Source: Thermosulfurimonas dismutans
GTDB lineage: Bacteria > Desulfobacterota > Thermodesulfobacteria > Thermodesulfobacteriales > Thermodesulfobacteriaceae
Direction: 5' to 3'
NCBI RefSeq assembly: GCF_001652585.1
Contig: NZ_LWLG01000024.1
Span: 1 to 16,975 of the forward strand
Length of the DNA stretch: 16,975 bases
In this document: in pieces, positions 1 through 16,395 of the stretch
Numbering within the stretch: position 1 is the first letter of the stretch
How the letters are laid out: every line of letters begins with the position of its first letter
Notes under the pieces: model-generated
The model's database searches: none
Told to the model about the DNA's origin: nothing
What the model saw: the letters and a program-made list of their open reading frames with translations, nothing else
Translations under genes and position numbers: made by a program

Positions 1-2
1 CC

Positions 3-281
3 TTTATGATAGGACTTTTTTCTCTGCTTGAAGCCATGACAGATCAACCTTTGCCTTTGATTTTGAAAGATCTTCCATTGGAAAAGGATGTTGAGGAGGC
101 CCTTTTGGGGCGTGAAAGTCCTTTTACACCGTTACTTCGCTTGGTGAAGGCTTATGAAGAAGGGCGATGGCAGGAGTTGTATAATATACTGAAAGGCCTA
201 CCGATTTCTGATGAGGTTCTTCCGAAATTTTATATCAAGGCCTTATCCTTTGCTCAGCGGGCTTTTGTGCTAGGGAAATGA
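3..281 (+). CDS. C-terminal fragment of an HDOD-type (EAL plus modified HD-GYP, COG3434/YuxH-like) signal-transduction protein. The 5' end lies outside the window.
   Basis: The frame is open to the left window edge. The pattern GLFSLLEAM..PL..IL..LPL...V.EALLGRE.P...LL.LV.AYEEG.W matches my recollection of the conserved C-terminal tail of HDOD proteins. The stop TGA (279-281) overlaps the mpl ATG (278-280) as ATGA. Confidence 0.55.
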   Translation, partial: FMIGLFSLLEAMTDQPLPLILKDLPLEKDVEEALLGRESPFTPLLRLVKAYEEGRWQELYNILKGLPISDEVLPKFYIKALSFAQRAFVLGK

Positions 282-1678
282 AAAGTATTCATCTCCTAGG
301 TATAGGTGGTATTGGGATGGTAGCCTTGGCGGGTCTCCTCAAGGCCCGTGGTTTTGAAATTACCGGCACGGAAGCTACTACTCCTTATCCTCCTGCGAGT
401 AAGGTCCTGAAGGACCTTGGGATTGAGCCTATCTTGGGGTTCCGAGAGGAGAATATAGATTTGGTTAAACCTTCGGCCGTGGTGGTAGGAAATGTTATCC
501 GGGCCGATAACCCTGAGGTCAAAAGGGCTAGGAAGCTGGGGCTTCCGCTCCATTCCATGCCCTCTGCCCTGGCTGAATGGATTCTCCCTGATAAAAAGTC
601 CTTAGTAGTGGCGGGAACTCACGGGAAGACCACGACCACGGCTTTGCTGGCTCACACTTTGGAGGCCCTTTCGAGCGAGCCTACCTATCTTGTGGGAGGG
701 ATTCTTCGATCCTCTGGGCTCAATTTCAGGTACGGTGATGGACCTTTTGTGGTCCTTGAGGGGGACGAATACGATTCGGCCTTTTTTGATAAGAGGCCCA
801 AATTTTGGCACTACCGGCCCTGGGCCGCCATCCTCACCGGAGTGGAATACGATCACGCCGATATTTATCCCGATTACGGAAGTCTCCTTTCGGCCTTCCG
901 TGGTTTTGTGGGTCTTATCCCACGGGAAGGGGTACTGGTCTTTTGTGGAGATGACCCTGGGGCGAGGGAAGCTGTTCTAGAAAGTTCTTGCCGCCTCATT
1001 TCGTATGGCAAAGACCCTGGAAATGATTATGTGCTCGAAGCCTTTGAGCCTCAGTCCTCTGGGAGCACGATGCGGGTCAAAACTCCCGAGTCTCGTTTGC
1101 AGATGAGAATTCCTCTTTTCGGTGAGCACAATGCCCTGAACGCCTTGGCTGTTATGGCCTTGCTTTTAGAGCTCGGTTTTTCTATAGAAGATACCACTCG
1201 GGCTCTTTCTACTTTTCAGGGCGTCTTACGCCGCCAAGAGGTTCTCTATAGGGGTAAGGTTACGGTGATAGACGATTTTGCCCATCATCCCACGGCGGTG
1301 AGGGTTACCCTCTCGGCCCTCAGAGAGGCCTTAAGGCCGGTCCGTCTTTTCGTGTGTTTTGAGCCTAGAACAAATACCAGTAAAAGAGGGATTTTTATGG
1401 CCGAATATATGAAAAGTTTGGCCTTGGCAGATCGGGTGTTCATCAAGGAGCCTCCGGGGCTCGAGAGGATTCCGGAAGAAGAACGTCTTGATCTTGGGGG
1501 GCTGGCAAATGAACTCAATAATAAAGGAGTTCCGACCAGCATTGAAACCGGGATCCATCTTGGGGAGCGATTAGCCGAAGAGCTTCGGGCTGGCGACCTG
1601 GTAGTCTTTATGTCAAGTGCCTCTTTTGGGGAGGTTTATTCCGAACTGATCGAGTACCTTAAGGACCGTGGACTTTGA
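278..1678 (+). CDS. mpl: UDP-N-acetylmuramate:L-alanyl-gamma-D-glutamyl-meso-diaminopimelate ligase (murein peptide ligase, Mur ligase family)
   Basis: It has an N-terminal Rossmann motif (LLGIGGIGM) and the P-loop AGTHGKTTTTALLAH. EGDEYDSAFFDKRPKFWHY and VEYDHADIY closely parallel E. coli Mpl (EADEYDCAFFDKRSKFVHY, LEFDHADIF). DDFAHHPTA and FEPRTNT are also present. Mpl is favoured over MurC because of the FFDKR.KF.HY block. Confidence 0.85.
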   Translation: MKSIHLLGIGGIGMVALAGLLKARGFEITGTEATTPYPPASKVLKDLGIEPILGFREENIDLVKPSAVVVGNVIRADNPEVKRARKLGLPLHSMPSALAEWILPDKKSLVVAGTHGKTTTTALLAHTLEALSSEPTYLVGGILRSSGLNFRYGDGPFVVLEGDEYDSAFFDKRPKFWHYRPWAAILTGVEYDHADIYPDYGSLLSAFRGFVGLIPREGVLVFCGDDPGAREAVLESSCRLISYGKDPGNDYVLEAFEPQSSGSTMRVKTPESRLQMRIPLFGEHNALNALAVMALLLELGFSIEDTTRALSTFQGVLRRQEVLYRGKVTVIDDFAHHPTAVRVTLSALREALRPVRLFVCFEPRTNTSKRGIFMAEYMKSLALADRVFIKEPPGLERIPEEERLDLGGLANELNNKGVPTSIETGIHLGERLAEELRAGDLVVFMSSASFGEVYSELIEYLKDRGL

Positions 1679-2318
1679 GCGTCTGAAGCGTATCCAGGAA
1701 GATTTGGCCCGGAAGGCCTGTTTTAGGCCTTTACAAAGAGAGATCCGAGTGGTGGCCGGGATGGATGTGGCCTATTCTCGAAATAGTGAACGGGCCTATC
1801 CGGCAATGGTTCTCATGAGATGGCCGGATCTCGAGCTCCTGGAAGAGATAACCCTGTTAGAGTCGGTGAACTTTCCTTATATCCCCGGATACCTATCTTT
1901 CAGAGAGGTGCCCCTTCTTAAAGCCGTGGTTGCAAGAGTTGCCCAGAGACCCGATCTAATTTTTGTGGATGGTCAGGGATTGGCCCATCCCCGGCGGGCA
2001 GGGTTGGCCGTTCATCTAGGAGTGGAGCTTGGGCTCCCCACCATCGGTTGTGCCAAAAGGCCTCTTGCCGGGGAGTTTGTCTGGCCTGAGGAGCATTTCG
2101 GAGCCACCAGTCCTATCTTGTTCCATAAAGAGGTGGTAGGTTATGTTCTTAGGAGCCGTAAGGGAGTGAAACCCATTTTTGTTTCTCCGGGAAATCTTAT
2201 TACCCCCGAGGAGGCTTTGGACTATACTCTAAGGGCCCTTAAAGGGTTCAGGTTGCCGGAGCCTTTAAGGAAGGCCCATCTTTTGTCGGTTAAAGCCAGG
2301 AAAAGCCATGAAGGGTAG
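1668..2318 (+). CDS. nfi: Endonuclease V (deoxyinosine 3' endonuclease)
   Basis: GMDVAY, YIPGYLSFREVP, FVDGQGLAHPRRAGLAVHLG, PTIGCAKRPL and GFRLPEPLRKAH are collinear with E. coli Nfi. The GTG start overlaps the mpl 3' end by 11 nt. Confidence 0.9.
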   Translation: MDFERLKRIQEDLARKACFRPLQREIRVVAGMDVAYSRNSERAYPAMVLMRWPDLELLEEITLLESVNFPYIPGYLSFREVPLLKAVVARVAQRPDLIFVDGQGLAHPRRAGLAVHLGVELGLPTIGCAKRPLAGEFVWPEEHFGATSPILFHKEVVGYVLRSRKGVKPIFVSPGNLITPEEALDYTLRALKGFRLPEPLRKAHLLSVKARKSHEG

Positions 2319-3018
2319 GGTGGCTGTTATTATAGCTGCTGCTGGTCGGGGCGAACGACTGGGAAGTGAGATTCCCAAACAGTTTCTTGAAGTCGCCGGT
2401 AAACCCGTCCTTATTCATACCCTTTCAATATTTGAAAACCATCCTGAAATTTCGGAGATAGTGGTAGCGGTTCCAGAGGGATGGGAAGAAAGGGTTGAAG
2501 AGCTTTGTCGGAAATTTGCCATCCATAAAGTATTTCGAGTGGTTACGGGAGGGGCTAGCCGTCAAGAGTCAGTTTTCAAGGCCTTTGAGGCCCTATCTCC
2601 AGAAAACAAAATCGTCCTAGTCCACGATGCCGCAAGACCTCTGGTGCCTTTCCGAGTGATCTCGGAGGTCATTCAGGCTATAGAACGTTTCGGAGCGGCT
2701 ATCTGTGCTGTTCCGATAAGGGACACCGTGAAGGAGGTCTCCGAAGACTTGAAAGTGATCAGGACCTTACCCCGTGAAAGGCTCTATTTGGCTCAGACCC
2801 CTCAGGGAAGCTGGTGGTCGTGGTTTGCGGAGGCTTTCTCAAAAGCCTTGACCTCTGGAGGAGTCTATACCGATGAGGCCTCCCTTCTTGAGGCCGCGGG
2901 CTTTACTGTGCAAGTAGTCCCTGGCTCTTTTACAAATCTTAAGATTACTTATCCGGAGGATCTAATTTTAATGGGAGAGCTTCTCAAGAAATCCCTTGAC
3001 ACAAATCCCAAAATATGA
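2308..3018 (+). CDS. ispD: 2-C-methyl-D-erythritol 4-phosphate cytidylyltransferase (MEP pathway)
   Basis: Motifs are VIIAAAGRGERLG..IPKQFL, VHDAARP, and QTPQG followed by a TDEASLLE-type motif. The length (236 aa) is typical of monofunctional IspD. The start overlaps nfi by 11 nt. Confidence 0.92.
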   Translation: MKGRVAVIIAAAGRGERLGSEIPKQFLEVAGKPVLIHTLSIFENHPEISEIVVAVPEGWEERVEELCRKFAIHKVFRVVTGGASRQESVFKAFEALSPENKIVLVHDAARPLVPFRVISEVIQAIERFGAAICAVPIRDTVKEVSEDLKVIRTLPRERLYLAQTPQGSWWSWFAEAFSKALTSGGVYTDEASLLEAAGFTVQVVPGSFTNLKITYPEDLILMGELLKKSLDTNPKI

Positions 3019-3053
3019 GGTGATAGATAAAAAACCTGAAGGAGGGGTGAGGT

Positions 3054-3398
3054 ATGTTCAAGGCCTGGAGAGGGAATGTGAAGAGATTGGTGGCGGTTTT
3101 AGGCCTTTCCTCCATGCTTGTCATTCCGGTAGGCTGCGGTCTCTCCAAAGAGGACAAGGCTATGCTTCAGCAGGCCATAGAAGCCTCTAAACAGGCTCAG
3201 GCAGCGGCTGAGGAGGCCAAGAAGGCTCAGGCCCAGGTGGAAGCTGAGTTGGCCCGCATTGAAGCCGCGGCCAAGCAAGCGGCTATGGCGGCCGAGCGGG
3301 CCGATGCCGCAGCCAATCGGGCTGCCGAAGCAGCTGAAAAGGCTAATGCCGCCGCGGCCAAAATGGAGAGGATCTTTGAAAAGAGTCTGCGCAAATAG
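3054..3398 (+). CDS. OprI/Lpp-like alanine-zipper outer-membrane lipoprotein
   Basis: A strong SD (GGAGGGGTGAGG) precedes the ATG. The signal peptide ends in a lipobox-like VIPVG|C. The mature part is an Ala/Glu/Lys/Gln coiled coil. The C-terminus AAKMERIFEKSLRK resembles P. aeruginosa OprI (..ERALRMLEKASRK, from memory) and E. coli Lpp (..YRK), including the terminal Arg-Lys. Confidence 0.65.
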   Translation: MFKAWRGNVKRLVAVLGLSSMLVIPVGCGLSKEDKAMLQQAIEASKQAQAAAEEAKKAQAQVEAELARIEAAAKQAAMAAERADAAANRAAEAAEKANAAAAKMERIFEKSLRK

Positions 3399-3410
3399 AA
3401 CCTAAAGGCG

Positions 3411-3462
3411 GGGTCCCTACCGGATTTGTCCTACCGGACGAGGGATCCCGTCAGCTTTTTTT
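3411..3462 (+). terminator. Possible intrinsic terminator for the lipoprotein gene, embedded in the 3' end of the convergent transpeptidase gene
   Basis: GGGTCCC (3411-3417) can pair with GGGATCCC (3442-3449) with one bulge. An inner CCGG/CCGG pairing also exists. A T7 run lies at 3456-3462. The 6-nt spacer between stem and T-run makes it non-canonical. Confidence 0.3.
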
Positions 3463-4313
3463 ATGTATTTCCGGACTTTAAAAAAGTCCAAAAGTAAATT
3501 CTTTCCGGTAAGATCCTCAAGAAAAGCGGCTTGTTTTATAACCTCAAGGATGGGATCTGGGAAACGTTTTTCGATATCAGGAAAGACCTGAAGATAGACC
3601 GTATTTCCTTTAACTCCCAGTTTGGTCGGCTGGTAGATAACCTTAACCGGCGTTCCGATCGGAACTAGAGGAAAAAGAGCCTCGATGTCTTCGGGATAGA
3701 GTCTTATACAACCGTGACTTACCCTCCGGCCGATGCCCCAAGGTCTGTTGGTGCCGTGGATGGCGTAGGCTTCTCTAGAAAGATAAAGGGCATAGTCTCC
3801 CAGGGGATTGTCCGGTCCCGGAGGAACTACCGGTGGTAGAGTGGGATCTTCCTTGCGGATGGATTCCGGGACATGCCAATAAGGTTTTTCTTTTTTGTGA
3901 TAGATAGTGTAGAGCCCTTCTGTTGTGAGTTTGCCTTCGGTGCCTATCCCGACAGGGGCGGTGTAGACCACCAAATTTTCCCCTTCACGGCGGAAATAAT
4001 AGAGCCGCATCTCTGGAAGATTGACTATGATTCCGGTACGAGACTCTGGAGGGAGAACAAACATTTTAGGGATAACAAGTCTTAGACCTTTAGGTGGTAT
4101 CCAAGGATCCACCCCTGGATTGGCCAGAACTATTTGATTGTAACCGAGATCATAGGTTCGAGCGATGTCTAGCAGGGTTTCGTTATCCGAAACGGTATAG
4201 TGTAAAATCTCTCCTATTACGGTTTCATCAGCGGTAAGGATAAAGCGATCCAGGGAAAAGGCCGGTGTTATGCTAAAGATTAAGAAAAGGAGTAGCAGGT
4301 TCCAGGCTTTCAT
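3417..4313 (-). CDS. Periplasmic L,D-transpeptidase (LysM plus YkuD/ErfK-YbiS-YcfS-YnhG catalytic domain)
   Basis: It has an N-terminal signal peptide (MKAWNLLLLFLIFSITPAFS) and a LysM-like segment (YTVSDNETLLDIARTYDLGYNQIVLANP). The catalytic block PPGPDNPLGDYALYL..AIHGTN.PWGIGRRVSHGCIRLYPEDIEALF closely parallels E. coli YbiS/ErfK (PAGPDNPMGLYALY..AIHGTN..GIGLRVSQGCIRL). Confidence 0.9.
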   Translation of the reverse strand: MKAWNLLLLFLIFSITPAFSLDRFILTADETVIGEILHYTVSDNETLLDIARTYDLGYNQIVLANPGVDPWIPPKGLRLVIPKMFVLPPESRTGIIVNLPEMRLYYFRREGENLVVYTAPVGIGTEGKLTTEGLYTIYHKKEKPYWHVPESIRKEDPTLPPVVPPGPDNPLGDYALYLSREAYAIHGTNRPWGIGRRVSHGCIRLYPEDIEALFPLVPIGTPVKVIYQPTKLGVKGNTVYLQVFPDIEKRFPDPILEVIKQAAFLEDLTGKNLLLDFFKVRKYIKKADGIPRPVGQIR

Positions 4314-4330
4314 GCTAGAAATTTTAAACT

Positions 4331-6667
4331 ATGAGTACATCTCGAAAAGTCTACAATAATATTCTTGATCTTATAGGAAATACTCCCCTGATAAAACTGC
4401 GTCGTATTCGAGTCAAACCCGGGGTTGAGATCTGGGGAAAGCTTGAGGCTGCCAATCCTGGAGGCTCGATCAAGGATCGTATCGCCCTTTCCATGATCGA
4501 AGATGCCGAGAAGAAGGGCGTGCTTACCCGGGACAAGATCGTGGCCGAGGCCTCAAGTGGGAACACGGGTATCGGACTTGCCATGGTCTGTGCAGTCAAG
4601 GGGTACCGGTGTCTCATTGCCATGCCGGAGTCGGCCTCCATTGAGAGGCGCAAGATCATGCAGGCCTATGGGGCTGAGATCCTTCTTACTCCGGCCGAAA
4701 AAGGCACGGATGGGGCCATTGAGGCCATCTATGAGTTAGTGAGGACTTATCCGGATCGATATTTCAACCCGGACCAGTTTAACAACCCCGCCAACTGGCA
4801 GATGCACTATCGAACCACTGGGCCGGAGATCTGGCGGGATACCGAAGGTCGGGTAACACATGTGGTGGCCTCTATGGGTACTACCGGCACCCTCATGGGG
4901 TTGGCGCGTTATTTCCGGGAAAAAGCCTCTCACGTAAATGTTATTGGGGTGGAGCCTCTTCCGGGACATAAGATCCAGGGTCTCAAGAACATGAAAGAAT
5001 CCTATCCTCCCGGCATTTACGATAAGAAACTCCCCCACCAGATCGTGAACGTGGAGGACGAAGAGGCCTATGAGCTAGCCCGGAGACTTGCACGGGAAGA
5101 AGGTATCCTGGTGGGGATGAGTTCCGGAGCGGCCCTGGCCGGGGCTTTGAAGATTGCCCGCGAGATCGAGGAAGGCCTTATCGTGGTCATATTTCCGGAC
5201 GGCGGAGAGCGCTATCTCTCTACCCCCCTTTGGGTCTTTCCGGAACCTCCCCGGAAGGAGGATTTTCGTCTTACCAATACCCTTTCCGGCAAGAAAGAAG
5301 TCTTCGAGCCTTTGGAGTCTGGGAAGGTAAAGATCTACACTTGCGGCCCTACCTTGAACCGCAGACCCCATCTCGGACTCTACCGCCGGATGCTTACGGC
5401 GGATATCCTCAGGCGCTATCTTGAATACCGCGGTCTTTCAGTCACCCACGTGGTCAACCTCACGGACTTTGACGACAAGACTATTGCGGCCGCTGAAGCC
5501 GCCGGCCGTCCCTTAAAGGAGCTTACCGAAGAGTTGGCTCAGGAGTTCTTTGAGGATCTTGGAGTTCTCCGGATAAAACCGGCTACCCATTATCCCCGGG
5601 TGAGTGAACACGTAGAGGACATGTTGGCTCTTACGCGGGAACTCCTCCGTAAAGGGCTGGCCTACGAGAAGTACTCCTCCATTTATTTCGATGTCTCCAA
5701 GCTTCCGGACTATGGGCGGCTTTCAGGGGTAGAGACGGCAGCGCTCAAGCCCGGGGTTACTGTAGATCTTGACGAGTATGAAAAGGACTCTCCTGCGGAT
5801 TTTACCCTTTTCAAGAGGGTAAGCATCCTGGAGCTTAAACAGGGTTATTTTGTAGACACGGAGTGGGGTAAGGTGCGCCCAGGGTGGCATATCCAGTGTG
5901 CAGCCCTGTCCATGAAATACCTTGGGGAAAGTTTCGACATCCACACCAGCGGTACCGATCTCCTCTTCCCCCACCACGAAAACGAGCGGGCCATCGCCCG
6001 GGCTCTGACCGGAAAGGAGCTGGCTCGTTTTTGGATTCATTCCGCCCTGGTCCTCTTCGAGGGTCGTAAGATGTCGGTTTCGGCTGGAAACGAGATCACC
6101 CTTGCGGATCTCAGGGCAAAAGGTTTTCGGGGACGTGAAATCCGGTTCTTCCTGCTTCGCAGCCATTACCGCAAGCCTTTGAACTTTACCTGGAAGGCCC
6201 TAGAGGAGGCTAGGAAGGCCCTTTCGAATCTGATAGTTTTCTGTGCCCTCCTTCATAACGCCCCTTTGGGATCGGAAGCTCCCGAGGTCCTTACGGCCGT
6301 TGAGGAGCTTAGGGAGGGTTTTGAGGCCGCTATGAACGATGACCTCAACACTCCCCAAGCGGTGGCCGAGCTATTTAGATTTTCCCGGAGGCTTTACCCT
6401 TGGGTTTCGGAAAGAGGCCTTTCCGAGGGGACTCGTATGAAAGCCCTTGAGGTCCTTTTGGGGATCAACCAGGTCCTAGATATCTTGGTTTTTCCTGAGG
6501 AAATCCGTTCGGAGGAGATCCAGGAGGTCCTTTCTGAGAGGGAGGCCGCCCGCCGGGCTGGAGACTACGAGACCGCGGATCGCCTACGGGAGGAACTGAG
6601 AGCACGCGGTTATCTGGTACTTGACACCCCTGCCGGAACTAGGGTTTTCCGTCTGCCAGATGAGTAG
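4331..6667 (+). CDS. cysS: Fusion protein. The N-terminal part is a PLP-dependent cysteine synthase (CysK/CysM type, about aa 1-300). The C-terminal part is a full-length cysteinyl-tRNA synthetase homolog (about aa 312-778) with degenerate HIGH and KMSKS motifs.
   Basis: Cysteine synthase marks are GGSIKDR (PLP lysine), SSGNTG, GTTGTLMG, MSSGAA and FPDGGERYLST. CysRS marks are FRLTNTLSGKKEVFEPL, YTCGPT, RPGWHIQC, DLLFPHHENE, AMNDDLNTPQA and the C-terminal EREAARRAGDYETADRLREELRARGYLVLDTPAGTRVFR. The signature motifs read HLGL (5369-5380) and KMSVS (6068-6082). There is no stop or start codon at the junction. Confidence 0.85.
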   Translation: MSTSRKVYNNILDLIGNTPLIKLRRIRVKPGVEIWGKLEAANPGGSIKDRIALSMIEDAEKKGVLTRDKIVAEASSGNTGIGLAMVCAVKGYRCLIAMPESASIERRKIMQAYGAEILLTPAEKGTDGAIEAIYELVRTYPDRYFNPDQFNNPANWQMHYRTTGPEIWRDTEGRVTHVVASMGTTGTLMGLARYFREKASHVNVIGVEPLPGHKIQGLKNMKESYPPGIYDKKLPHQIVNVEDEEAYELARRLAREEGILVGMSSGAALAGALKIAREIEEGLIVVIFPDGGERYLSTPLWVFPEPPRKEDFRLTNTLSGKKEVFEPLESGKVKIYTCGPTLNRRPHLGLYRRMLTADILRRYLEYRGLSVTHVVNLTDFDDKTIAAAEAAGRPLKELTEELAQEFFEDLGVLRIKPATHYPRVSEHVEDMLALTRELLRKGLAYEKYSSIYFDVSKLPDYGRLSGVETAALKPGVTVDLDEYEKDSPADFTLFKRVSILELKQGYFVDTEWGKVRPGWHIQCAALSMKYLGESFDIHTSGTDLLFPHHENERAIARALTGKELARFWIHSALVLFEGRKMSVSAGNEITLADLRAKGFRGREIRFFLLRSHYRKPLNFTWKALEEARKALSNLIVFCALLHNAPLGSEAPEVLTAVEELREGFEAAMNDDLNTPQAVAELFRFSRRLYPWVSERGLSEGTRMKALEVLLGINQVLDILVFPEEIRSEEIQEVLSEREAARRAGDYETADRLREELRARGYLVLDTPAGTRVFRLPDE

Positions 6668-7331
6668 TTACCTCCGCGAGGTTCTGCTAGAGATTTATCG
6701 CGGTCTTTATTACCATTTCGGGCCGCAGCACTGGTGGCCGGCGGAGAGCCCCTTCGAGGTCTGTGTGGGAGCCATCCTTACGCAGAACACCAACTGGCGC
6801 AATGTGGAGCGGGCTATCGAGAATCTCAAAACTCGGGGGTTTCTTTCCCCGGAGGCCTTGCACCGTCTCTCCGTGGAAGAACTGGCCGGACTAATACGCC
6901 CGGCGGGTTATTTTAGGATCAAGGCCCAGAGATTGAAAGCCTTTGTGGATTTCCTGGTCTCACGATACGAAGGTGAGCTCTCGGCTCTAGCGGAAAAGGA
7001 AACCGATGAGATCCGTAAAGAATTGCTTTCCATAAAAGGTATTGGCCCCGAGACCGCCGATAGCATCTTGCTTTACGCCCTGGAGCGTCCGGTCTTCGTG
7101 GTGGACGCCTACACCAAGCGCATCCTCCTGCGGCATGGTCTTACCACGGAGGAGGCCGGATACGATGAACTCCAAGAACTCTTCATGAAAAGTCTCCCGC
7201 GGGACACGCAACTTTATAACGAATATCACGCTCTGCTCGTGGCCTGCGGAAAACACTACTGTCTTTCCCGCAAGCCCCGCTGTTCTTCCTCGGAAAAGAA
7301 TTCCTGTCCCCTGGTCAGGGTTATGACCTAA
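6660..7331 (+). CDS. Endonuclease III-related HhH-GPD superfamily protein (COG2231-like DNA glycosylase family)
   Basis: Motifs are WWPAESPFEVCVGAILTQNTNW.NVE.A, AGYFRIKAQRLK, the HhH motif IKGIGPETADSILLYAL, and VVDAYTKRIL. The tail is Cys-rich (C-x4-C-x6-C-x7-C). I prefer the ATG at 6660, which overlaps the upstream stop by 8 nt, over the track start at 6621. Confidence 0.8.
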   Translation: MSSYLREVLLEIYRGLYYHFGPQHWWPAESPFEVCVGAILTQNTNWRNVERAIENLKTRGFLSPEALHRLSVEELAGLIRPAGYFRIKAQRLKAFVDFLVSRYEGELSALAEKETDEIRKELLSIKGIGPETADSILLYALERPVFVVDAYTKRILLRHGLTTEEAGYDELQELFMKSLPRDTQLYNEYHALLVACGKHYCLSRKPRCSSSEKNSCPLVRVMT

Positions 7332-8224
7332 CCGGTGACAATGAGCACCACCCCTAGTAACATGATGGAGGCCGCAAAGAACCTGGCTTGCAGATGGCTT
7401 TCCTGGAAAAAAGCCCCGCCGAAAAGAATGCCGAAAAGGATACTGGTCCGCTTGACGGCGATCATGTAGGCTGCCGGGGCCAGGCTTATGGCCTTCATAT
7501 GACAGATGATCATGAGGGCCTGGGTGAGCCCTAAAAGAAGCACGCCCTTTAAGTTTTGCTTAATAAAATTTAGGATCCTTGGTCTGAAAAAGAGCTTGAG
7601 CACCGCTGGCACAAAAAGCCCTAAGAGGACGAAGTAACTTCCGGCAAACCAGAGGGGGTCTGAGAGCAAAATGGCCTTTTTCCCAAAAACAGTGGTCACG
7701 GCGTAGATGAGGGCTACGGCCAGCATGAGAAGGGATCCCCGCTCCCGAAAAAGGGCTCGGAAGGGGGTAAGAGGGCCTTCTTTTAGCACCGGAAGATGTA
7801 GCAAATAACTTCCTAAGACCACCAGGCCGATGCCGCCTATCCCTTTCCAGGAGAGTTTTTCTCCCAGGACTATATAGCCCGTAAGGATGATGAAGGTCGG
7901 GGTGAAGGAGAGGAAGGGTAAGGTAAGGGATAAAGGCGAGATCCGGATGGCTTCCATGTAAAGAAGTATGGCCAGGGTTTCAAGTGGAAGGAGAAGGCCT
8001 ACGGTCTTCAAGAATTCTGGATTTTGCAGGGCCTTGCTGAAGTGGGAGAGAAGCTCTGAAGTCGGAAAAAAGATCCAGAGGAAAAACAGCAGAAAGGGGA
8101 GGGGCCCAAGGGTACGGGCGGTGGCCATGAGGACCATGCCATCTCGGGCAAAAAACTTCTTGTTCAGGGCGTCCCCAAGAGCCACGAAAAAGGCCGCCCC
8201 CAGGGCCAAAGTAAACCAGATCAT
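7328..8224 (-). CDS. EamA/DMT-superfamily integral membrane transporter
   Basis: It is about 10 hydrophobic helices arranged as two EamA-like halves. Each half ends in a motif like GYIVLGEKLSWKGIGGIGLVVLGSYLL. Substrate is unknown. Confidence 0.75.
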   Translation of the reverse strand: MIWFTLALGAAFFVALGDALNKKFFARDGMVLMATARTLGPLPFLLFFLWIFFPTSELLSHFSKALQNPEFLKTVGLLLPLETLAILLYMEAIRISPLSLTLPFLSFTPTFIILTGYIVLGEKLSWKGIGGIGLVVLGSYLLHLPVLKEGPLTPFRALFRERGSLLMLAVALIYAVTTVFGKKAILLSDPLWFAGSYFVLLGLFVPAVLKLFFRPRILNFIKQNLKGVLLLGLTQALMIICHMKAISLAPAAYMIAVKRTSILFGILFGGAFFQESHLQARFFAASIMLLGVVLIVTG

Positions 8225-8264
8225 TTGGGAAGGGATTCCTTTTATAGTTGAGTTTAAATGACAT

Positions 8265-8270
8265 TATAAT
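8265..8270 (+). promoter_or_regulatory. Candidate -10 box (perfect TATAAT) for xth
   Basis: TATAAT lies 15 nt upstream of the AAGGAG SD. The best -35-like hexamer, TTGAGT (8248-8253), is only 11 nt away, so the promoter assignment is weak. Confidence 0.25.
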
Positions 8271-8297
8271 ACCGTAATGCGTAATAAGGAGAAGACG

Positions 8298-9086
8298 GTG
8301 TCGCAGATTTTCGTCACTTGGAACGTCAATTCTCTGAAGGCCAGAAAAGCGCACGTTTTGCGTTATCTTGAGTTGAGGAAACCTTCGGTTCTCTGCCTTC
8401 AGGAAACCAAACTAAGGGACGAAGCCTTCCCTTTCGAGGTTTTTAAGGCTTTAGGGTATCACGTCCTGCACGCCGGAGGACCGGGGAGGAACGGAGTGGC
8501 CATTTTTACAAAGTATCCTCTGGAAGATCCTGTAAGGGGTTTTCCTGAAGAGGAGGATCCCCAGGCCGTAGAACGCCTCCTTTGTGCGCGCATCCGGGAG
8601 CTTTATGTCATTTCGGTGTACATCCCCAACGGAAGTCCGGTGGGGTCGGATTATTTTCTCTACAAACTGGAATTCATCTACCGCCTGCGGGAGTTTCTGG
8701 AAAGGCATTTTACTCCCGAGACTCCGCTGGCTCTCTGCGGGGACTTCAACGTGGCTCCGGAGCCCATAGACGTTTACGATCCGGAACTGCTTGAGGGGCA
8801 TATCTGTTTTCACGAGCGGGAGAGGGCCGCCATTAAAGTGCTTGCGGAATGGGGGCTCTATGATGCCCTGCGGCTCAAACATCCGGAAAGTCCCGGAATC
8901 TTTTCCTGGTGGGATTACCAGTTTGGGGCCTTCCGGGCGAACCGCGGAATGCGGCTTGACCACATCTGGGTGACTGAGCCTCTGGCCGAAAAACTCACGG
9001 ACTGTTTCATTGACCGGGACCCCCGGGGCTGGAAGAAGCCCTCGGATCACGCCCCGGTGGTCGCGGTCTTCGATTTACCGGACTAG
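8298..9086 (+). CDS. xth: Exodeoxyribonuclease III (AP endonuclease, EEP fold)
   Basis: Motifs are TWNVNSLKAR, LCLQETK, GDFNVAP, RLDHIW and the terminal SDHAPV. I prefer the in-frame GTG at 8298 because AAGGAG (8286-8291) lies 6 nt upstream. The track ATG at 8277 has no SD, and either start is possible. Confidence 0.9.
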   Translation: MSQIFVTWNVNSLKARKAHVLRYLELRKPSVLCLQETKLRDEAFPFEVFKALGYHVLHAGGPGRNGVAIFTKYPLEDPVRGFPEEEDPQAVERLLCARIRELYVISVYIPNGSPVGSDYFLYKLEFIYRLREFLERHFTPETPLALCGDFNVAPEPIDVYDPELLEGHICFHERERAAIKVLAEWGLYDALRLKHPESPGIFSWWDYQFGAFRANRGMRLDHIWVTEPLAEKLTDCFIDRDPRGWKKPSDHAPVVAVFDLPD

Positions 9087-10043
9087 GTCGCCATATTTTT
9101 CCACGATCCTTTCCACCACCCGGTGGGCAGTGTTGAAGGCCGCCATGATGCTTCCTTTCTCAAGGGCGATGTCCCCGGCCAGAAATACTCCTGGCAGATT
9201 GGTCTCGTAAAATTCGTCTATAACTGGTTTTCCGTCCTGAAACTCCACTCCGATGCTTCGCAAGAAACCGGCCGGCGTGCTTCCTCCTAGACAGTAATAA
9301 ACTCGATCGAAAAGCATGGTCTTCCCATCCTTGAAGACCACCTTTACACCTTCGGGATCAGGCTCGAGGTGATCTATGTCGGTGTTCAACATGAGATTTA
9401 CCCGCCCCTCTTGGGCCTTCTTTTCCAGGTTTTCATGGTTGACCGGATTGATGCGGAAGAACTTGGGACGTCGGTAAGAAAGATAGACCTCGTCACATCC
9501 CTCACAGAGGAAACAGGCGGTTTCGGCCGCTGTATCCCCCCCTCCTACCACCAGGACCTTCCCACCCTGTGGACACTCGCAGGGGGCCTCGAAGAAGACT
9601 CGATCCTTGATCTCCTTAGGTATGGGATAGTCCGGTTTGCGGGGTTTGCCGAAAATCCCGATGGCGATGACCACGATGGGGGTTTCGGCCACGAATTCGC
9701 TTCCGACCCTTACTTTATAGGTGCCGTTCCCTTTCTCGATGGCGTTCACTTCGCTCCGGTAGCGGATATCGAGTTCATATTCCTGGATGTATTTGGCCAT
9801 CCTCTCAAGGAAGTCTTCTTTGGTTTCGGTCTCGAAACGGCAGATACCCTCCGGTTCGATTACCATCTTGCGATATACGGCATCTACGCGTTTTCCTGGG
9901 CGATACAGACGCTGGATGGTATCGCAAAAGGCCTCAGCCTTTTCGAAAATGATTACCGGGGAAATGTTTTTGGCTTTGGCTTCTACTCCAACCGCAAGGC
10001 CAGCCGGGCCTGCCCCTACTACCACGATCTTGGCCTTTTCCAT
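9075..10043 (-). CDS. FAD/NAD(P)H-dependent pyridine nucleotide-disulfide oxidoreductase family protein (thioredoxin-reductase fold, substrate unknown)
   Basis: Motifs are the FAD-binding VVVGAGPAGLA, the NAD(P)H-binding VVGGGDTAAE, and the C-terminal GVFLAGDIA. The canonical TrxR CAxC is absent. It carries CEC and CFLCEGC around the second Rossmann motif instead. Confidence 0.75.
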   Translation of the reverse strand: MEKAKIVVVGAGPAGLAVGVEAKAKNISPVIIFEKAEAFCDTIQRLYRPGKRVDAVYRKMVIEPEGICRFETETKEDFLERMAKYIQEYELDIRYRSEVNAIEKGNGTYKVRVGSEFVAETPIVVIAIGIFGKPRKPDYPIPKEIKDRVFFEAPCECPQGGKVLVVGGGDTAAETACFLCEGCDEVYLSYRRPKFFRINPVNHENLEKKAQEGRVNLMLNTDIDHLEPDPEGVKVVFKDGKTMLFDRVYYCLGGSTPAGFLRSIGVEFQDGKPVIDEFYETNLPGVFLAGDIALEKGSIMAAFNTAHRVVERIVEKYGDLVR

Positions 10044-10050
10044 GTTTACA

Positions 10051-10078
10051 CCCCCCGAAATTATATCTTTCCGGGGGG
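10051..10078 (-). promoter_or_regulatory. Stable GC-rich hairpin in the usp-oxidoreductase spacer that includes the only SD-like G-run of the oxidoreductase gene
   Basis: The minus-strand RNA reads CCCCCCGGAAA-GAUAUAA-UUUCGGGGGG. That gives 7 G-C plus 3 A-U pairs, one bulged G and a 7-nt loop. The 3' arm ends 7 nt before the AUG (10043) and no U-tract follows. Confidence 0.35.
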
Positions 10079-10094
10079 CTACCTTAACATAAGA

Positions 10095-10553
10095 TTACTT
10101 CTTTTGAAAAGGGTTTACAGTGAGAACGGGACAAGGAGCCGTCTTGACCACCTTTTCGGCCACACTTCCGAAAAGGGCCTTTTCCAAACCTCCCCGACCA
10201 TGAGTCCCCATGACAATGAGGTCGATGTCTTTTTCTTTGGCAACCTCACAGATCTTGTCTGCCACATCTCCCACAGCAATTATCGTTTCTACGGTTGGGA
10301 GCCCGGAAAAGTATTCTTCTACGAAAGATTCCATCTTTTTCTGGGCTCCTTGATAAAGTTCTTTTTCGATGTTTTCTAGAGCTACATGGGGAACATAAAA
10401 ACCGGCAAACCTGGAGAGATCTTCCACTACGAAAATAACATGAAGTTTCGCCTCGAATTTTTCGGTGAGAACCCTGGCATAACCGGCTACCTTGGAGCAA
10501 GCGTCAGTAAAGTCTACCGGAAAAAGGATATTTTTGATTTCAACCATAGACAA
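10095..10553 (-). CDS. Universal stress protein (UspA family)
   Basis: Motifs are ILFPVDFTD, DLIVMGTHGRGGLEKALFGSVAEKVVKTAPCPVLTV (ATP-binding G-2x-G-9x-G(S/T) type). The SD AGAGGGGGG lies upstream. Confidence 0.9.
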   Translation of the reverse strand: MSMVEIKNILFPVDFTDACSKVAGYARVLTEKFEAKLHVIFVVEDLSRFAGFYVPHVALENIEKELYQGAQKKMESFVEEYFSGLPTVETIIAVGDVADKICEVAKEKDIDLIVMGTHGRGGLEKALFGSVAEKVVKTAPCPVLTVNPFQKK

Positions 10554-10610
10554 CCCCCCTCTTTAGTTTTAAAGTTCTTTAAATCCATTATAGCAGAATA
10601 GGAAGGAAAA

Positions 10611-11456
10611 ATGATAGACCTACACACCCATTCTACGGCTTCTGACGGTACTTATTCACCCGCCGAATTGGTGCAATTGGCTAAAGACGTGAGTCTTTCG
10701 GCCTTAGCGCTTACGGATCACGATACGGTAGAGGGACTAGGGGAGGCGATGGCGGCTGCTCGTGAGCTCGGAGTTCCTTTTGTGCCTGGGGTGGAAATCA
10801 GCGTTAAGTTTGATGGCCCCGGACACTGTCATATCCTTGGTTATTTTGTGGATGCGGACTCTCCGGTCCTTAGAGAGACTTTGGGTCTGCTGCAGAGGGC
10901 TAGGGAGGAAAGAAACCGGAAGATGATGGAGAAACTCCAGTCCTTGGGGGTGGATATTACCTTGGAAGAGCTTGAGGATCAGGCCAAGGGAGAGATCGGT
11001 CGTCCTCATTTCGCGGCCCTTCTGGTGAAGAAAGGGGTGGTGAAAAGCGTAGGAGAAGCCTTTGAGAAGTACCTCAAGAAAGGGGCCCCGGCCTACGTGC
11101 CCAAGGCTAGACTTACAGCGGAAGAGGCCTTTTCGGCCATTAGAGCCGCTGGGGGCCTGGCGGTCTTGGCGCATCCAATACATTTAAAGCTTTCCCCGGA
11201 GGAACTGGTCCGTTACGTGGAAGAACTAAAGGCCTTTGGTCTAGACGGTATCGAGGCCTATTATACGGATCATACCAAACAATTCACGACCCTTTGTCTT
11301 GAGATCGCCAGGCGCTACGATCTTGTGCCTACTGGGGGAAGCGATTTCCACGGACACAACAAACCGGATATAAAGCTTGGCAGGGGCTTTGGGAATCTCT
11401 CCGTGCCGGACGAGTGTTACGAAAGGTTGCGGCGTCGCTGGGAGGCTAAGAGCTAG
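10611..11456 (+). CDS. PHP-domain metal-dependent phosphoesterase (TrpH/YciV, RNase AM-like family)
   Basis: Motifs are IDLHTHSTASDG, ALTDHDTVEG, LAHP and GGSDFHG. The SD AGGAAGGA lies upstream. Confidence 0.85.
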   Translation: MIDLHTHSTASDGTYSPAELVQLAKDVSLSALALTDHDTVEGLGEAMAAARELGVPFVPGVEISVKFDGPGHCHILGYFVDADSPVLRETLGLLQRAREERNRKMMEKLQSLGVDITLEELEDQAKGEIGRPHFAALLVKKGVVKSVGEAFEKYLKKGAPAYVPKARLTAEEAFSAIRAAGGLAVLAHPIHLKLSPEELVRYVEELKAFGLDGIEAYYTDHTKQFTTLCLEIARRYDLVPTGGSDFHGHNKPDIKLGRGFGNLSVPDECYERLRRRWEAKS

Positions 11457-12202
11457 TCTTCTGATAACGGACCGACCAGCTTGAAAAGCTCTTCGAGCTC
11501 TTCGAGGGTCAGAGGTCGAATTTCGCCAGGACGAAGTTTACCAAGTGTAAGAGGCCCAAAACGAATCCTTACCAAGCGTTTTACTAGGCTTCCGGCGGCG
11601 GCGAAAATCTTGCGCACCTCCCTTTTGCGGCCTTCATGGAGTCTCACCTCGTAGACCGTCTCCCGCCGGTTGCGACGGACAAGCCTGATCTCGTCCGGGA
11701 AGACCCGGCGGCCCTCTACTTCAAGTCCCTCCTTAAGGATGCGAGCGAGAAGGTCTTCCCGCGGAGGTCTTGTAAGCCACACCCGATAGACTCTTGGAAT
11801 TTCGTAGCGGGGGTGAAGGAGCCTCTGGGCCAGATCGCCATCATTGGTGAGAAGTAGAAGACCTTCACTGTCCCGGTCGAGCCGTCCCACCGGAAAGACC
11901 CCCGGGGGCAGATCTTTGAGAAACTTGGCTATGGTCGGCCGGCCGTGGGGGTCCGATAGGGCGGTGAGATACCCCGGGGGTTTGTAAAAGCGGTAGTAGA
12001 CTTTTTGGGGGAGTTTTACCGAACGACCTCCCACTTCCACTTTGTCTCTCTCGGGGTCTACTTTGAAACTAGGTTCGGTGATCACCTCACCGTTTACCAG
12101 AACCTTGCCCTCTTGGATAAGGACTTCGGCCTTGCGGCGGGAGGTCACCCCAGCCCGAGCTAGAAACTTCGAAAGACGCACTCGATTCCTCGTTACGGGC
12201 AT
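11453..12202 (-). CDS. rluB: rRNA pseudouridine synthase of the RsuA/RluB family with an N-terminal S4 domain
   Basis: The S4 motif is RLSKFLARAGVTSRRKAEVLIQEGKVLVNGE and the catalytic motif is GRLDRDSEGLLLLTNDG. The Arg/Lys-rich body is also consistent. The exact family member (B, E or F) is not certain. Confidence 0.85.
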   Translation of the reverse strand: MPVTRNRVRLSKFLARAGVTSRRKAEVLIQEGKVLVNGEVITEPSFKVDPERDKVEVGGRSVKLPQKVYYRFYKPPGYLTALSDPHGRPTIAKFLKDLPPGVFPVGRLDRDSEGLLLLTNDGDLAQRLLHPRYEIPRVYRVWLTRPPREDLLARILKEGLEVEGRRVFPDEIRLVRRNRRETVYEVRLHEGRKREVRKIFAAAGSLVKRLVRIRFGPLTLGKLRPGEIRPLTLEELEELFKLVGPLSED

Positions 12203-12251
12203 TTCGTGTTAAAGTTAATCGAAAGGAGATAGCCTTGCCACAGGCCGATGG

Positions 12252-13574
12252 ATGATGTCTGATATGGAAACCTTAAGGGAAGCTGTGGAGGATTTCGCCC
12301 GTAAAAAGGGGGTTTGGGCCGAGCTCTGGGGGGAGATCGAGGAAGGCCTTTCGGTAGAGAGACGGGACCGGAGGCTTGAGGCCATCAGTCCTTATCGGGA
12401 AACGCTTTTTGCCGTTCGGGTGATCCATCGGGGACGGGCCGGTCTCTCCTACACCACGCGGGCTGAGCCGGAAGCCGTAAGAGAAGCTGCCGAGCGGGCC
12501 TACGAGGTGAGTAGATTTTCGGAAGAGGAGGCCGAGATCCCCGAATTTCGGGACCTTCCGGAGTTGGAAGAGAAATCGGTGGTCCGCAGATCGCCGGAAG
12601 AGTTAGAATCTTTTCTCCTCGAGGCCGAAGAGACCGCCCTTTCTTCGGACTCGCGGATCCACCGGATCGAAAGGACGGCCCTTTCTTTCTCCGAGACCAC
12701 CTATTTTATCTTTCAATCTGGGGGGCTTTCAGCGAGCTTCTGTGCAGGTTCTTATTCCTTTCTCATTTCCCTCACGGCTCGAGAAGGGGAAGAGGAACGC
12801 TCGGCCTGGGAATGGCGGGAGGCCCTGGATCTTTCGGAACTCGATTTCAGAGTTCTCGCCCGTTCGGCCGCTAGAAGGGCGCTCGACCTCCTTTCCGCTC
12901 GAAAGATCTCTTCCCGAAGGCTTTCCATCCTCTTTCCGCCCCAGGCAGCGGTGGTGCTTCTTGAAACCCTGAGCCATTCCTTTTGCGGAGACGAGGTTCT
13001 GAAGGGGCGCTCGCGCCTTGCCGGAAAACTAGGGGAACGCCTCTTTTCCCCGAAGATTATCTTGGTTGACGACGGTCTCCTCCCCGGGGGTCCGGAGACC
13101 AGACCCTTTGACGACGAGGGTGTGCCCCAGGAGAGGACGATCTTGGTCTCGGAAGGTACGATTTCGGCCTTCCTTTACGACACCCTTTGGGGACGGCGGG
13201 CCGGGAGACGTTCCACCGGAAACGCCCGGAGACCCTCCTTCAGAAGTCTTCCAACGATTTCGACCACCAATCTCTATCTTGAACCGGGGAGTTTCAGTCC
13301 AGAGGCCCTGCGTGAGGCCGAGTCCACGGTCTTTGAGGTTTACGAGATGCTCGGATGGCACACTACGGATCCCATCTCTGGAGATTTTTCGGTAGGGGTC
13401 TCGGGAGTGCTTCACGAGAGGGGCGAGAAAACTCCCATTTCGGGTATGGCCCTTTCTGGAAACCTTTTCGATCTTCTTGCTCGCGTTACGGCCGTGGGCG
13501 CGGACCTTACTTTTTACGGCGATGTCGGAAGCCCTTCCCTTCTCGTGTCCGGCCTCGACCTCTCCGGGGCCTGA
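12252..13574 (+). CDS. pmbA: TldD/PmbA-family protein, PmbA/TldE-like (no HExxxH metal site)
   Basis: It is collinear with E. coli PmbA, including a C-terminal GDFS.G..G pattern (ISGDFSVGVSGVLHERGE) and NLFDLL..V.AVG.D. I found no HExxxGH motif of the TldD type. Confidence 0.8.
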   Translation: MMSDMETLREAVEDFARKKGVWAELWGEIEEGLSVERRDRRLEAISPYRETLFAVRVIHRGRAGLSYTTRAEPEAVREAAERAYEVSRFSEEEAEIPEFRDLPELEEKSVVRRSPEELESFLLEAEETALSSDSRIHRIERTALSFSETTYFIFQSGGLSASFCAGSYSFLISLTAREGEEERSAWEWREALDLSELDFRVLARSAARRALDLLSARKISSRRLSILFPPQAAVVLLETLSHSFCGDEVLKGRSRLAGKLGERLFSPKIILVDDGLLPGGPETRPFDDEGVPQERTILVSEGTISAFLYDTLWGRRAGRRSTGNARRPSFRSLPTISTTNLYLEPGSFSPEALREAESTVFEVYEMLGWHTTDPISGDFSVGVSGVLHERGEKTPISGMALSGNLFDLLARVTAVGADLTFYGDVGSPSLLVSGLDLSGA

Positions 13575-13637
13575 AGCTTGCCTAATATGGTTAGAGTATT
13601 ACTTTAAGAAGTACTTCGTAAGAGAAGGGTGGTTAAA

Positions 13638-16385: not shown

Positions 16386-16395
16386 AGGATAACCC

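Follow-up and report, generated by a model that had tools for sequence, protein, structure and literature searches.

Proteins that derive from aminoacyl-tRNA synthetases (aaRSs) and control amino acid metabolism as pseudoenzymes are rare, and HisZ is the textbook bacterial case. MshC, a derivative of cysteinyl-tRNA synthetase (CysRS), keeps the HIGH and KMSKS motifs and is without an anticodon-binding domain. A 2022 review of synthetase paralogs gives only MshC and CysRS* for CysRS; CysRS*, a SelC*-charging paralog of Desulfobacterales, has no anticodon-binding domain and is genetically linked to selC*/selB* (2022 review). In addition, CysRS itself acts as a cysteine persulfide synthase (CARS), with pyridoxal phosphate (PLP) bound in the Escherichia coli enzyme on K73, K76, K266, and K269 of CysRS itself (PMC5660078). 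Here we describe a gene of Thermosulfurimonas dismutans that joins a cysteine synthase to a CysRS-like module. It lies on contig NZ_LWLG01000024.1 (assembly GCF_001652585.1), of which positions 1 to 16,975 were analyzed (the window, 16,975 nucleotides [nt] in full). On balance, we think that its product is an active cysteine synthase of the CysM type with a pseudo-synthetase tethered to it that binds tRNA-Cys; the protein probably couples cysteine synthesis to tRNA-Cys/cysteine status. No description of a cysteine synthase-CysRS fusion was found in the full-text literature searched, and neither the T. dismutans genome paper nor the strain F29 paper mentions CysRS or cysteine synthase.

Results

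A cysteine synthase and a CysRS-like module share one reading frame

The gene is a single open reading frame (ORF) of 778 codons with zero internal stops, and its product is 100% identical to a database protein (P0001) that carries the NCBI name "cysteine--tRNA ligase [Thermosulfurimonas dismutans]." Pfam places PALP at residues 12 to 290 (E value, 5e-79) and tRNA-synt_1e at residues 325 to 628 (E value, 5e-87; 292 bits, compared with 390 to 496 bits for the canonical CysRSs scanned), and DALR_2 and CysS_C (anticodon-binding) domains are also matched in the C-terminal half. With the NCBIfam models, the N-terminal half passes cysKM (TIGR01136; 385.3 versus a cutoff of 344.15) and narrowly misses the two narrower equivalogs (cysM, 383.2 versus 394.2; cysK, 339.1 versus 350.95). 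The C-terminal half passes cysS (TIGR00435; 366.3 versus a cutoff of 340), a model against which canonical relatives score 470 to 517. The layout of the gene is as follows.

4331..6667, + strand: whole ORF, cysteine synthase plus CysRS-like module, 778 amino acids (aa) plus stop
4343..5224, + strand: CysM-type fold-type-II PLP cysteine synthase domain, residues 5 to 298 (PALP; cysKM above cutoff)
5225..5266, + strand: flexible, Pro-rich linker, residues 299 to 312, PLWVFPEPPRKEDF (predicted local distance difference test score [pLDDT], ~59 to 60; sequence and length vary among homologs)
5267..6214, + strand: CysRS-like Rossmann fold plus CP domain, residues 313 to 628 (tRNA-synt_1e; best Foldseek match 8qhp, TM score 0.92)
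6215..6490, + strand: helical stem-contact/anticodon-binding bundle, residues 629 to 720, including DDLNTP at 6338-6355 (DALR_2; D671 and L672 conserved family-wide)
6491..6664, + strand: C-terminal alpha/beta anticodon-binding domain, residues 721 to 778 (CysS_C; R737, R741, Y746, D750, R753, G760, and D765)

An earlier note, made from the DNA letters alone, had proposed an uninterrupted 778-codon cysteine synthase-CysRS fusion, and the ORF, Pfam, and NCBIfam results all bear this out. As that note also stated, the CysRS part has no initiation codon of its own: no start codon follows the linker in the 4331..6667 ORF. The linker is Pro-rich, as described, but spans 14 residues (299 to 312) rather than about 12; its mean identity to the T. 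dismutans protein among homologs is 0.32. The note had named a stop codon or frameshift at the junction as something that could undo the fusion. The reading frame through the junction is the same in more than 120 full-length homologs from independent assemblies, and the fusion is therefore real; a frameshift or assembly artefact at this point is ruled out.

A 9-bp hairpin (TCTTTCCGG...CCGGAAGGA), followed by GGATTTTCGT, occupies window positions 5235-5261, exactly on the interdomain linker, and includes an AAGGAGG Shine-Dalgarno-like run. An internal translation start at this run was considered and ruled out, given the lack of a start codon after it. The region yields 5 terminator-like hits, versus 3.3 +/- 2.1 in shuffled sequences, and could have arisen by chance.

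The cysteine synthase half has a complete and constant active site

By Foldseek, the best structural matches of the N-terminal half are CysM/O-acetylserine sulfhydrylase B proteins (2BHS and 2JC3; 46 to 47% identity, TM score 0.93), and every PLP and substrate loop of CysM is also found in the fusion protein. The differences from CysM are that the fusion protein falls just under the cysM equivalog cutoff and bears a 480-residue C-terminal extension. The active-site motifs are as follows.

4460..4480, + strand: GGSIKDR with the PLP Schiff-base lysine K48 (K48 in 98/98 fusions and in all genome-derived members)
4553..4570, + strand: SSGNTG, residues 75 to 80, substrate-carboxylate Asn loop (S76, G77, N78, T79, and G80 invariant)
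4877..4891, + strand: GTTGT, residues 183 to 187, PLP-phosphate loop (G183, T184, G186, and T187 invariant)
5120..5134, + strand: SSGAA, with the Ser contacting the PLP ring (S264 and G266 invariant)

The earlier note had called this set of hallmarks (SIKDR, SSGNTG, GTTGT, and SSGAA) complete, and the motifs are indeed present here and invariant across the family. The PLP lysine motif and the SGNTG loop occur in all members, cysKM scores stay at 355 to 385 bits throughout, and about 100 positions of this half are conserved in at least 23 of 24 divergent members. The best reading is that the N-terminal half is a predicted active cysteine synthase of the CysM type.

The CysRS half has lost residues that canonical enzymes keep

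The motif register in the CysRS half was taken from HMMER alignments to the solved CysRS structures 8qhp, 3tqo, and 1li5. As the canonical yardstick we used the 150 best representatives from a library of 1.8 billion proteins, and residues were counted in 238 canonical HIGN-type sequences. The positions concerned are as follows.

5342..5344, + strand: C338, equivalent by alignment to E. coli Zn ligand C28 (in all 98 fusions; gone in Desulfovibrionales members)
5369..5380, + strand: HLGL for HIGH/HIGN, residues 347 to 350 (fourth position Asn in 238/238 canonical relatives)
5384..5389, + strand: R352-R353, with R353 a family-specific invariant Arg (98/98 fusions; A, T, or S in canonical CysRSs)
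5897..5899, + strand: C523 of GWHIQC, equivalent by alignment to E. coli Zn ligand C209
5942..5953, + strand: HTSG for canonical H-x-G-G, residues 538 to 541 (position 540 Gly in 238/238 canonical sequences, Ser in 93/98 fusions)
5966..5986, + strand: FPHHENE, with H548 and E552 equivalent by alignment to E. coli Zn ligands H234 and E238
6068..6082, + strand: KMSVS for KMSKS, residues 580 to 584 (position 583 Lys in 238/238 canonical sequences; gap, R, F, V, or H in the family)

These alignments uphold the register that had been set by eye for HLGL (5369-5380) and KMSVS (6068-6082), so that no shifted alignment hides an intact HIGH or KMSKS. The Zn and cysteine-pocket residues had been described as kept, and they are: the Zn site of the T. 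dismutans protein is complete (C338, C523, H548, and E552), and the cysteine-contact residues T378 and D379 are retained.

The claim that the ATP-side signatures as a group are degenerate stands only in part. Most canonical stand-alone CysRSs among the 150 representatives have HIGN, DDKT, and H(T/C/A)GG together with an intact KMSKS, and these motifs (HIGN/DDKT/HxGG/KMSKS) are essentially invariant among the 238 sequences of that type. The closest canonical relatives are archaeal (Woesearchaeota, Bathyarchaeota, Aenigmarchaeota, and Nanoarchaeia), in agreement with 8qhp being the best solved match. The T. dismutans protein itself has DDKT at residues 381 to 384. Judged from these alignments, the changes that had been written as "KIIK to KTIA" and "HGGG to HT.G," and the loss of the His as such, are ordinary type-level variation, for which E. 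coli is the wrong yardstick: DDKT, HTGG, and Asn as the fourth residue are normal in the nearest canonical CysRSs, and HLGL, KMSVS, and S540 are unusual. The truly unusual changes are thus N350L, G540S, and K583V, plus the added R353. Also lost are W494, W508, G515, E522, S524, and Q555, each of which 234 or more of the 238 canonical sequences retain, with replacements at core positions including F494 (W of DFxLWK), V515 (G of WGxGRPGWH), S540, and I555 (Q of ENEIAQS). Seven of the lost residues (N350, W494, G515, E522, G540, Q555, and K583) are the same in 238/238 canonical sequences, whereas the fusion family varies at these positions. Counted against the same 238 sequences, about a dozen canonical-invariant residues have been lost beyond the motif changes. 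Even so, T. dismutans stands at the least decayed end of its family: HIGH still has its initial His and KMSKS its initial Lys.

Catalytic positions decay differently from lineage to lineage

The homolog set consisted of the best 120 database matches (56 to 85% identity), all of which are full-length fusions; they come from Thermosulfurimonas, Thermodesulfatator, Caldimicrobium, Thermodesulfobacterium, Thermosulfuriphilus, Desulfofervidaceae, and metagenome-assembled genomes (MAGs) labeled "Deltaproteobacteria." The family amounts to more than 120 clusters at 90% identity. All 120 are without the canonical fourth HIGH residue and without a canonical KMSKS, which is replaced, depending on the subgroup, by KMSRS, KMSVS, KMSHT, KMSFS, KISGL, or KLS--S (a two-residue deletion). 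We also scanned one genome per GTDB species with patterns built from the CysK half. Among the matches listed, the same architecture was found in Desulfofustis, Desulfopila, Desulfocapsa, Desulfobulbales, several Desulfobacterales, Desulforapulum autotrophicum, and Desulfobacula, as well as in Desulfatibacillum, Smithella, Desulfovibrionaceae, Desulfocurvus, and one Polyangiaceae MAG. The family spans at least Thermodesulfobacteria, Desulfobulbales, Desulfobacterales, Syntrophales, and Desulfovibrionales.

Across this range, TIGR00435 scores fall in steps, from 470 to 517 in canonical CysRSs to 451 (P0122), 366 (T. dismutans), 345 (Desulforapulum), 337 (Caldimicrobium), 235 (Desulfatibacillum), and 146 (Desulfovibrionaceae), while cysKM scores remain at 355 to 385. 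The motifs follow suit: Desulforapulum has LHLGVLRR, PTLHLQC, and RVD-ESEN; Desulfatibacillum has CGPR, LQLSEARR, and PSWHIQT and no KMSKS; and the Desulfovibrionales members have MGPP or PGPR, DDPDSWRR, PSWFLQL, and FPHLENF, again with no KMSKS, and are therefore without both Zn cysteines, HIGH, and KMSKS. R353 is retained even by the most decayed members. Mean identity to the T. dismutans protein is 72% in the CysK half, 61% in the Rossmann/CP part, 34% in the helical domain, and 44% in the C-terminal domain, and a block of the CP domain (approximately Y445 to R516) is strongly conserved and carries a family-specific insertion.

In the family alignment, E552T is always paired with E522H, beside a cysteine ligand, in proteins of the Caldimicrobium/Thermodesulfobacterium type. 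One Zn ligand may have moved from E552 to H522 in this subgroup, and the Zn site, where it survives, appears to be actively maintained via the paired change. The covariation at positions 522 and 552 is strict: PGWHI(E/Q)C occurs with FPHHE(N/D)E and PTWHIHC with FPHHENT.

In a tree of the CysRS part, the Desulfobacterota fusions and their split forms make up one clade in 95 to 96 of 100 bootstraps, sister to the HIGN-type canonical enzymes. The earlier note had raised the questions of how widely the fusion occurs and whether it stands apart in a CysRS tree; it occurs across Desulfobacterota and has a clade of its own. Members of this clade that look like stand-alone proteins are the split forms, in which the gene lies 2 to 4 nt downstream of a separate PALP gene. 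Since split genes adjoin so closely, the PALP/CysRS-like pairing seems to be under selection.

On one JGI metagenome contig (L085, 4209-7293), a PALP gene is followed 4 nt on by a pseudo-CysRS gene and, 15 nt further, by a gene for a ThiF/MoeB-family E1-like protein, an arrangement that recalls the CysM/CysO/MoeZ thiocarboxylate route to cysteine and that was seen in one lineage only.

The anticodon-reading residues are conserved throughout the family

In the E. coli enzyme, R427, W432, D436, and R439 belong to the anticodon-binding domain that touches the anticodon in structure 1U0B, and these residues have been mutated to retarget CysRS (PMC13449415). HMMER aligns R741, Y746, D750, and R753 of the T. 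dismutans protein with these four residues, and R737, G760, and D765 with E. coli R423, G446, and D451. Conservation of these positions among 122 members is nearly complete: R737, D750, and G760 are present in 122/122, R741 is R or K in 122/122, position 746 is aromatic (W, Y, or F) in 122/122, R753 is found in 121/122, and D765 is found in 120/122. This extends to the Desulfovibrionales proteins, whose active site is gone. Canonical CysRSs at equal catalytic-domain divergence show identities of 64% (Rossmann/CP), 31% (helical), and 41% (C-terminal), compared with 61, 34, and 44% in the family; because these values match, the tRNA-binding domains appear to be under ordinary constraint. As far as residues can be compared by alignment, the family-wide conserved feature of the CysRS half is its set of tRNA anticodon-binding residues and not the cysteine pocket, a point that the earlier note had missed.

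Gene neighborhood

Among the neighborhoods of the fusion loci, no partner gene is conserved across the whole family. In Thermodesulfobacteria, the fusion has a divergent L,D-transpeptidase gene on one side and an endonuclease-III-like gene downstream. In T. dismutans, the gap between the fusion start codon and the divergent L,D-transpeptidase (YkuD) gene measures only 17 nt (4314-4330). A search of 3900-7000 gave no sigma-70-like promoter; given this result and the 17-nt gap, both the fusion and the YkuD promoter would have to be of a different type or be embedded in coding sequence. The endonuclease-III-like (HhH-GPD) ORF (6621-7331, + strand) has a TTG start inside the fusion gene, whose last 46 nt it shares, and a gene of this kind also directly follows the fusion in T. 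marina and Caldimicrobium (L001, L002, and L005). The window contains no tRNA gene and no match to an Rfam family, T-box included.

In six Desulfobacterales loci (L016, L017, and L020-L023), a shared gene of about 300 to 360 aa with no Pfam match lies on the same strand 6 to 185 nt downstream of the fusion. Farther upstream in the T. dismutans window, an Ala/Glu/Lys-rich ORF of 114 aa (3054-3398, + strand) has a lipoprotein-like N terminus and a weak alanine-zipper match below the Pfam cutoff; an ORF of 110 aa occupies the matching position in T. marina.

Discussion

The best explanation of these results is that the synthetase half of the fusion has been freed from selection for ATP-dependent cysteine activation, with its fold and anticodon readers kept. 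To our knowledge, every cell requires either CysRS or SepRS/SepCysS to obtain Cys-tRNA-Cys, and we know of no way in which a domain without Zn ligands, HIGH, and KMSKS could make it. It follows that a cell with a decayed ortholog must have some other enzyme for this purpose. Within one clade, decay has struck the catalytic positions in parallel and in a different way in each lineage; on the simplest reading, catalysis ceased to be needed early in the family, including the line leading to T. dismutans. What selection has kept, so far as the sequences tell, is the pairing with cysteine synthase and the anticodon-reading surface. The earlier note had left the choice between a divergent housekeeping CysRS and a repurposed cysteine-binding paralog. 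The decay of the CysRS half next to a constant CysK half, and the loss of canonical-invariant residues, favor the repurposed paralog, but the specific roles that had been suggested for it find no support.

In the mechanism that we propose, the CysM half would combine O-acetylserine or O-phosphoserine with sulfide to give free cysteine. The pseudo-CysRS half would bind tRNA-Cys through its GCA anticodon and, in T. dismutans, probably cysteine at the Zn site too, with the outcome that cysteine synthesis would be tied to demand or feedback. Coupling of this kind would fit the confinement of the family to sulfidogenic bacteria, since sulfide is never limiting for them and sulfur supply cannot be the control signal. 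The HisRS-like domain of GCN2, which senses uncharged tRNA, offers a parallel.

Several points weigh against this reading. Coupling via tRNA-Cys/cysteine status is the most likely mechanism, but it is drawn by analogy. The tree was built by neighbor joining only, on the CysRS part. In the AlphaFold model, the domains are confident (pLDDT, 90), but at a predicted TM score of 0.64 the model does not fix how the two halves are oriented to each other. T. dismutans would also need a separate canonical CysRS for routine charging of tRNA-Cys, the presence of which we infer. By tblastn, no second cysS was found within 6 to 10 kb of any fusion (84 loci), and when the two canonical representatives nearest to the fusion served as seeds, the searches arrived at Acidobacteriota, Omnitrophica, and Coatesbacteria in one case and at DPANN and Bathyarchaeota archaea in the other, in neither case at Thermodesulfobacteria.

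The remaining points against it are those that would favor a bifunctional enzyme that is still active. In that case, the CysRS half would be divergent but functional, perhaps as the sole CysRS of Thermodesulfobacteria, and would charge tRNA-Cys with cysteine from the fused CysM half, with R353 or other residues compensating for those lost. The gene lies near ispD and ispF, a common location for housekeeping cysS in other bacteria, and no canonical cysS was found for the T. dismutans lineage in the fusion loci and seeded searches just described. The protein passes the cysS equivalog cutoff (366 versus 340) with a complete cysteine pocket, in which all Zn ligands plus T378 and D379 are retained, and its tRNA domains are normally constrained, with intact anticodon readers. 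R353 is invariant, adjoins the HIGH position, and could make up for the lost Lys; in some ArgRSs, a lysine of the HIGH loop compensates in this way. Furthermore, coupling of CysK to a working CysRS does occur, as canonical-motif fusions or adjacent pairs exist: a Nanoarchaeota MAG (P0131, 768 aa) and a "Candidatus Falkowbacteria" MAG (L030, 6001-8637) encode CysK-CysRS fusions with fully canonical motifs, and an uncultured archaeon (L029, 1928-4443) has adjacent cysK and canonical cysS genes. The KMSVS change alone is also a weakened argument for inactivity, since the K266A and K269A variants of E. coli CARS (EcCARS) still support in vitro translation (in PUREfrex for K269A) (PMC5660078).

Against an active synthetase stand the dozen or so lost residues that 238/238 canonical CysRSs keep and the variation of catalytic positions among neighboring genera (KMSVS, KMSHT, KMSFS, and KLS--S). 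Because these positions differ even between neighboring genera, the pattern looks like relaxed constraint and not like a new fixed solution. In addition, the clade includes orthologs for which synthetase activity of any kind is impossible. We consider a still-active bifunctional enzyme unlikely.

A second alternative is that the chemistry itself is directed at tRNA: the pseudo-CysRS would dock tRNA-Cys and present its 3' end or a nucleoside, and the fused PLP enzyme would carry out beta-replacement on the tRNA-bound substrate. CysK-family enzymes accept many nucleophiles, a short flexible linker joins the CysK half to the N terminus of the Rossmann fold, and members with a dead synthetase site still conserve the anticodon readers along with many residues of the CP domain. 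On the other side, the SGNTG loop, which receives a free alpha-carboxylate, is strictly invariant and for that reason favors an ordinary free amino acid as the substrate; a SepRS-like partner or other mischarging enzyme occurs in no neighborhood examined; and we know of no precedent for a fold-type-II PLP enzyme acting on tRNA. We judge tRNA-directed chemistry quite improbable. If it did operate, it would amount to one of two novelties, namely, a tRNA-dependent route to Cys-tRNA-Cys that bypasses SepRS/SepCysS or an amino-acid-type modification confined to tRNA-Cys, and such an outcome we hold to be just as improbable. A milder version, in which a bacterial metabolic enzyme is switched directly by uncharged tRNA, would, if true, still be new.

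It is highly improbable, in our view, that the CysRS module has no tRNA role and serves purely as a cysteine-sensing allosteric domain, whose Zn pocket would take up the product cysteine and bring about feedback inhibition, or as a structural scaffold or oligomerization aid. Cysteine sensing would accord with the intact Zn pocket of T. dismutans, the paired ligand change in the sister group, and the precedent of HisZ; many orthologs, however, have lost Zn ligands, whereas none has lost the anticodon-reading residues, and residues matching R427, D436, and R439 would be superfluous in a scaffold.

Lastly, the earlier note's suggestions of a cysteine ligase of the MshC kind, serving a low-molecular-weight thiol, or of cysteine persulfide synthesis as in CARS, which the kept cysteine pocket and a host living on sulfur chemistry might recommend, are extremely improbable: the MshC model TIGR03447 scores 200.2 versus a cutoff of 485.1, a ligase would still need the adenylation machinery and its ATP motifs, which are precisely the decaying part, only 2 of the 4 PLP lysines of EcCARS are kept, and no thiol-pathway genes lie nearby. 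The note's account of Akaike 2017, i.e., PLP-dependent persulfide synthesis by CysRS that needs the KIIK and KMSKS lysines, was accurate. Its statement that exactly those lysines are replaced holds for the equivalents of K76 (A386) and K269 (V583) but not for K383 and K580, which are kept. Membership in MshC was rejected from the TIGR03447 score and the presence of DALR_2 and CysS_C, and membership in CysRS* was rejected from the presence of an anticodon domain with no tRNA gene in the window and no selB-like neighbor.

Our preferred reading is a cysteine synthase tethered to a tRNA-Cys-binding pseudo-synthetase. The fusion family appears to represent previously undescribed synthetase-derived pseudoenzymes coupled to amino acid metabolism, with a function that is predicted. 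It is of real interest to the aaRS field: the loss of synthetase catalysis can be traced in it residue by residue, with the anticodon readers and the attachment to cysteine synthase retained. A module that senses tRNA-Cys or cysteine would, if that is indeed its role, do at the protein level what T-box control does and could explain how sulfidogenic bacteria limit the production of toxic cysteine. There is a practical consequence as well, in that the "cysteine--tRNA ligase" label assigned by annotation pipelines can mask a missing cysS, suggest a duplicated one, and distort single-copy marker counts.

Comparison with known systems

Relative to canonical CysRS (E. coli 1LI5/1U0B; 8QHP), the C-terminal half has the same fold and domain order (Foldseek TM scores, 0.84 to 0.92), and the Zn ligands, cysteine-contact residues, and anticodon-reading residues are all matched; it differs in having Leu at the fourth HIGH position, Val at the second KMSKS Lys, and SG for GG, and in being fused behind a cysteine synthase without a start codon of its own. 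The canonical-motif pairings (P0131, L030, and L029), together with a hexapeptide (CysE-like)-CysRS fusion of 711 aa (P0243), likewise join a cysteine biosynthesis enzyme to CysRS, but they keep HIGN or HIGH and KMSKS or KMAKS, and P0131, the only one scored, reaches 517 with TIGR00435. P0131 and L030 fall outside the Desulfobacterota clade in the tree and would therefore be independent fusions. A further protein (P0134, 858 aa), with DALR_2 (317-374) upstream of a complete catalytic domain (411-722), may be a tandem or rearranged CysRS. CARS shares with the fusion protein a CysRS scaffold and PLP chemistry on cysteine (PMC5660078); in the fusion, PLP belongs to a separate, fused fold-type-II domain, and two of the CARS lysines are absent.

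The nearest functional parallel, in class and not by homology, is HisZ, the HisRS paralog that regulates the ATP phosphoribosyltransferase HisG. Both are synthetase derived, have lost adenylation motifs, and are coupled physically to the cognate biosynthetic enzyme, and the halves of the Desulfobacterota pair, like HisZ and HisG, are separate genes in some lineages. HisZ differs in being a class II derivative and a separate subunit with no anticodon-binding role, whereas here the anticodon domain is conserved best; HisZ is regulatory, and allosteric control of the fused cysteine synthase is proposed by analogy with it. MshC and CysRS* are also derived from CysRS and have taken on nonstandard roles, but their pattern is the opposite one: they lack the anticodon domain, with the ATP motifs kept in MshC, whereas the Desulfobacterota fusions retain that domain and are losing the ATP motifs.

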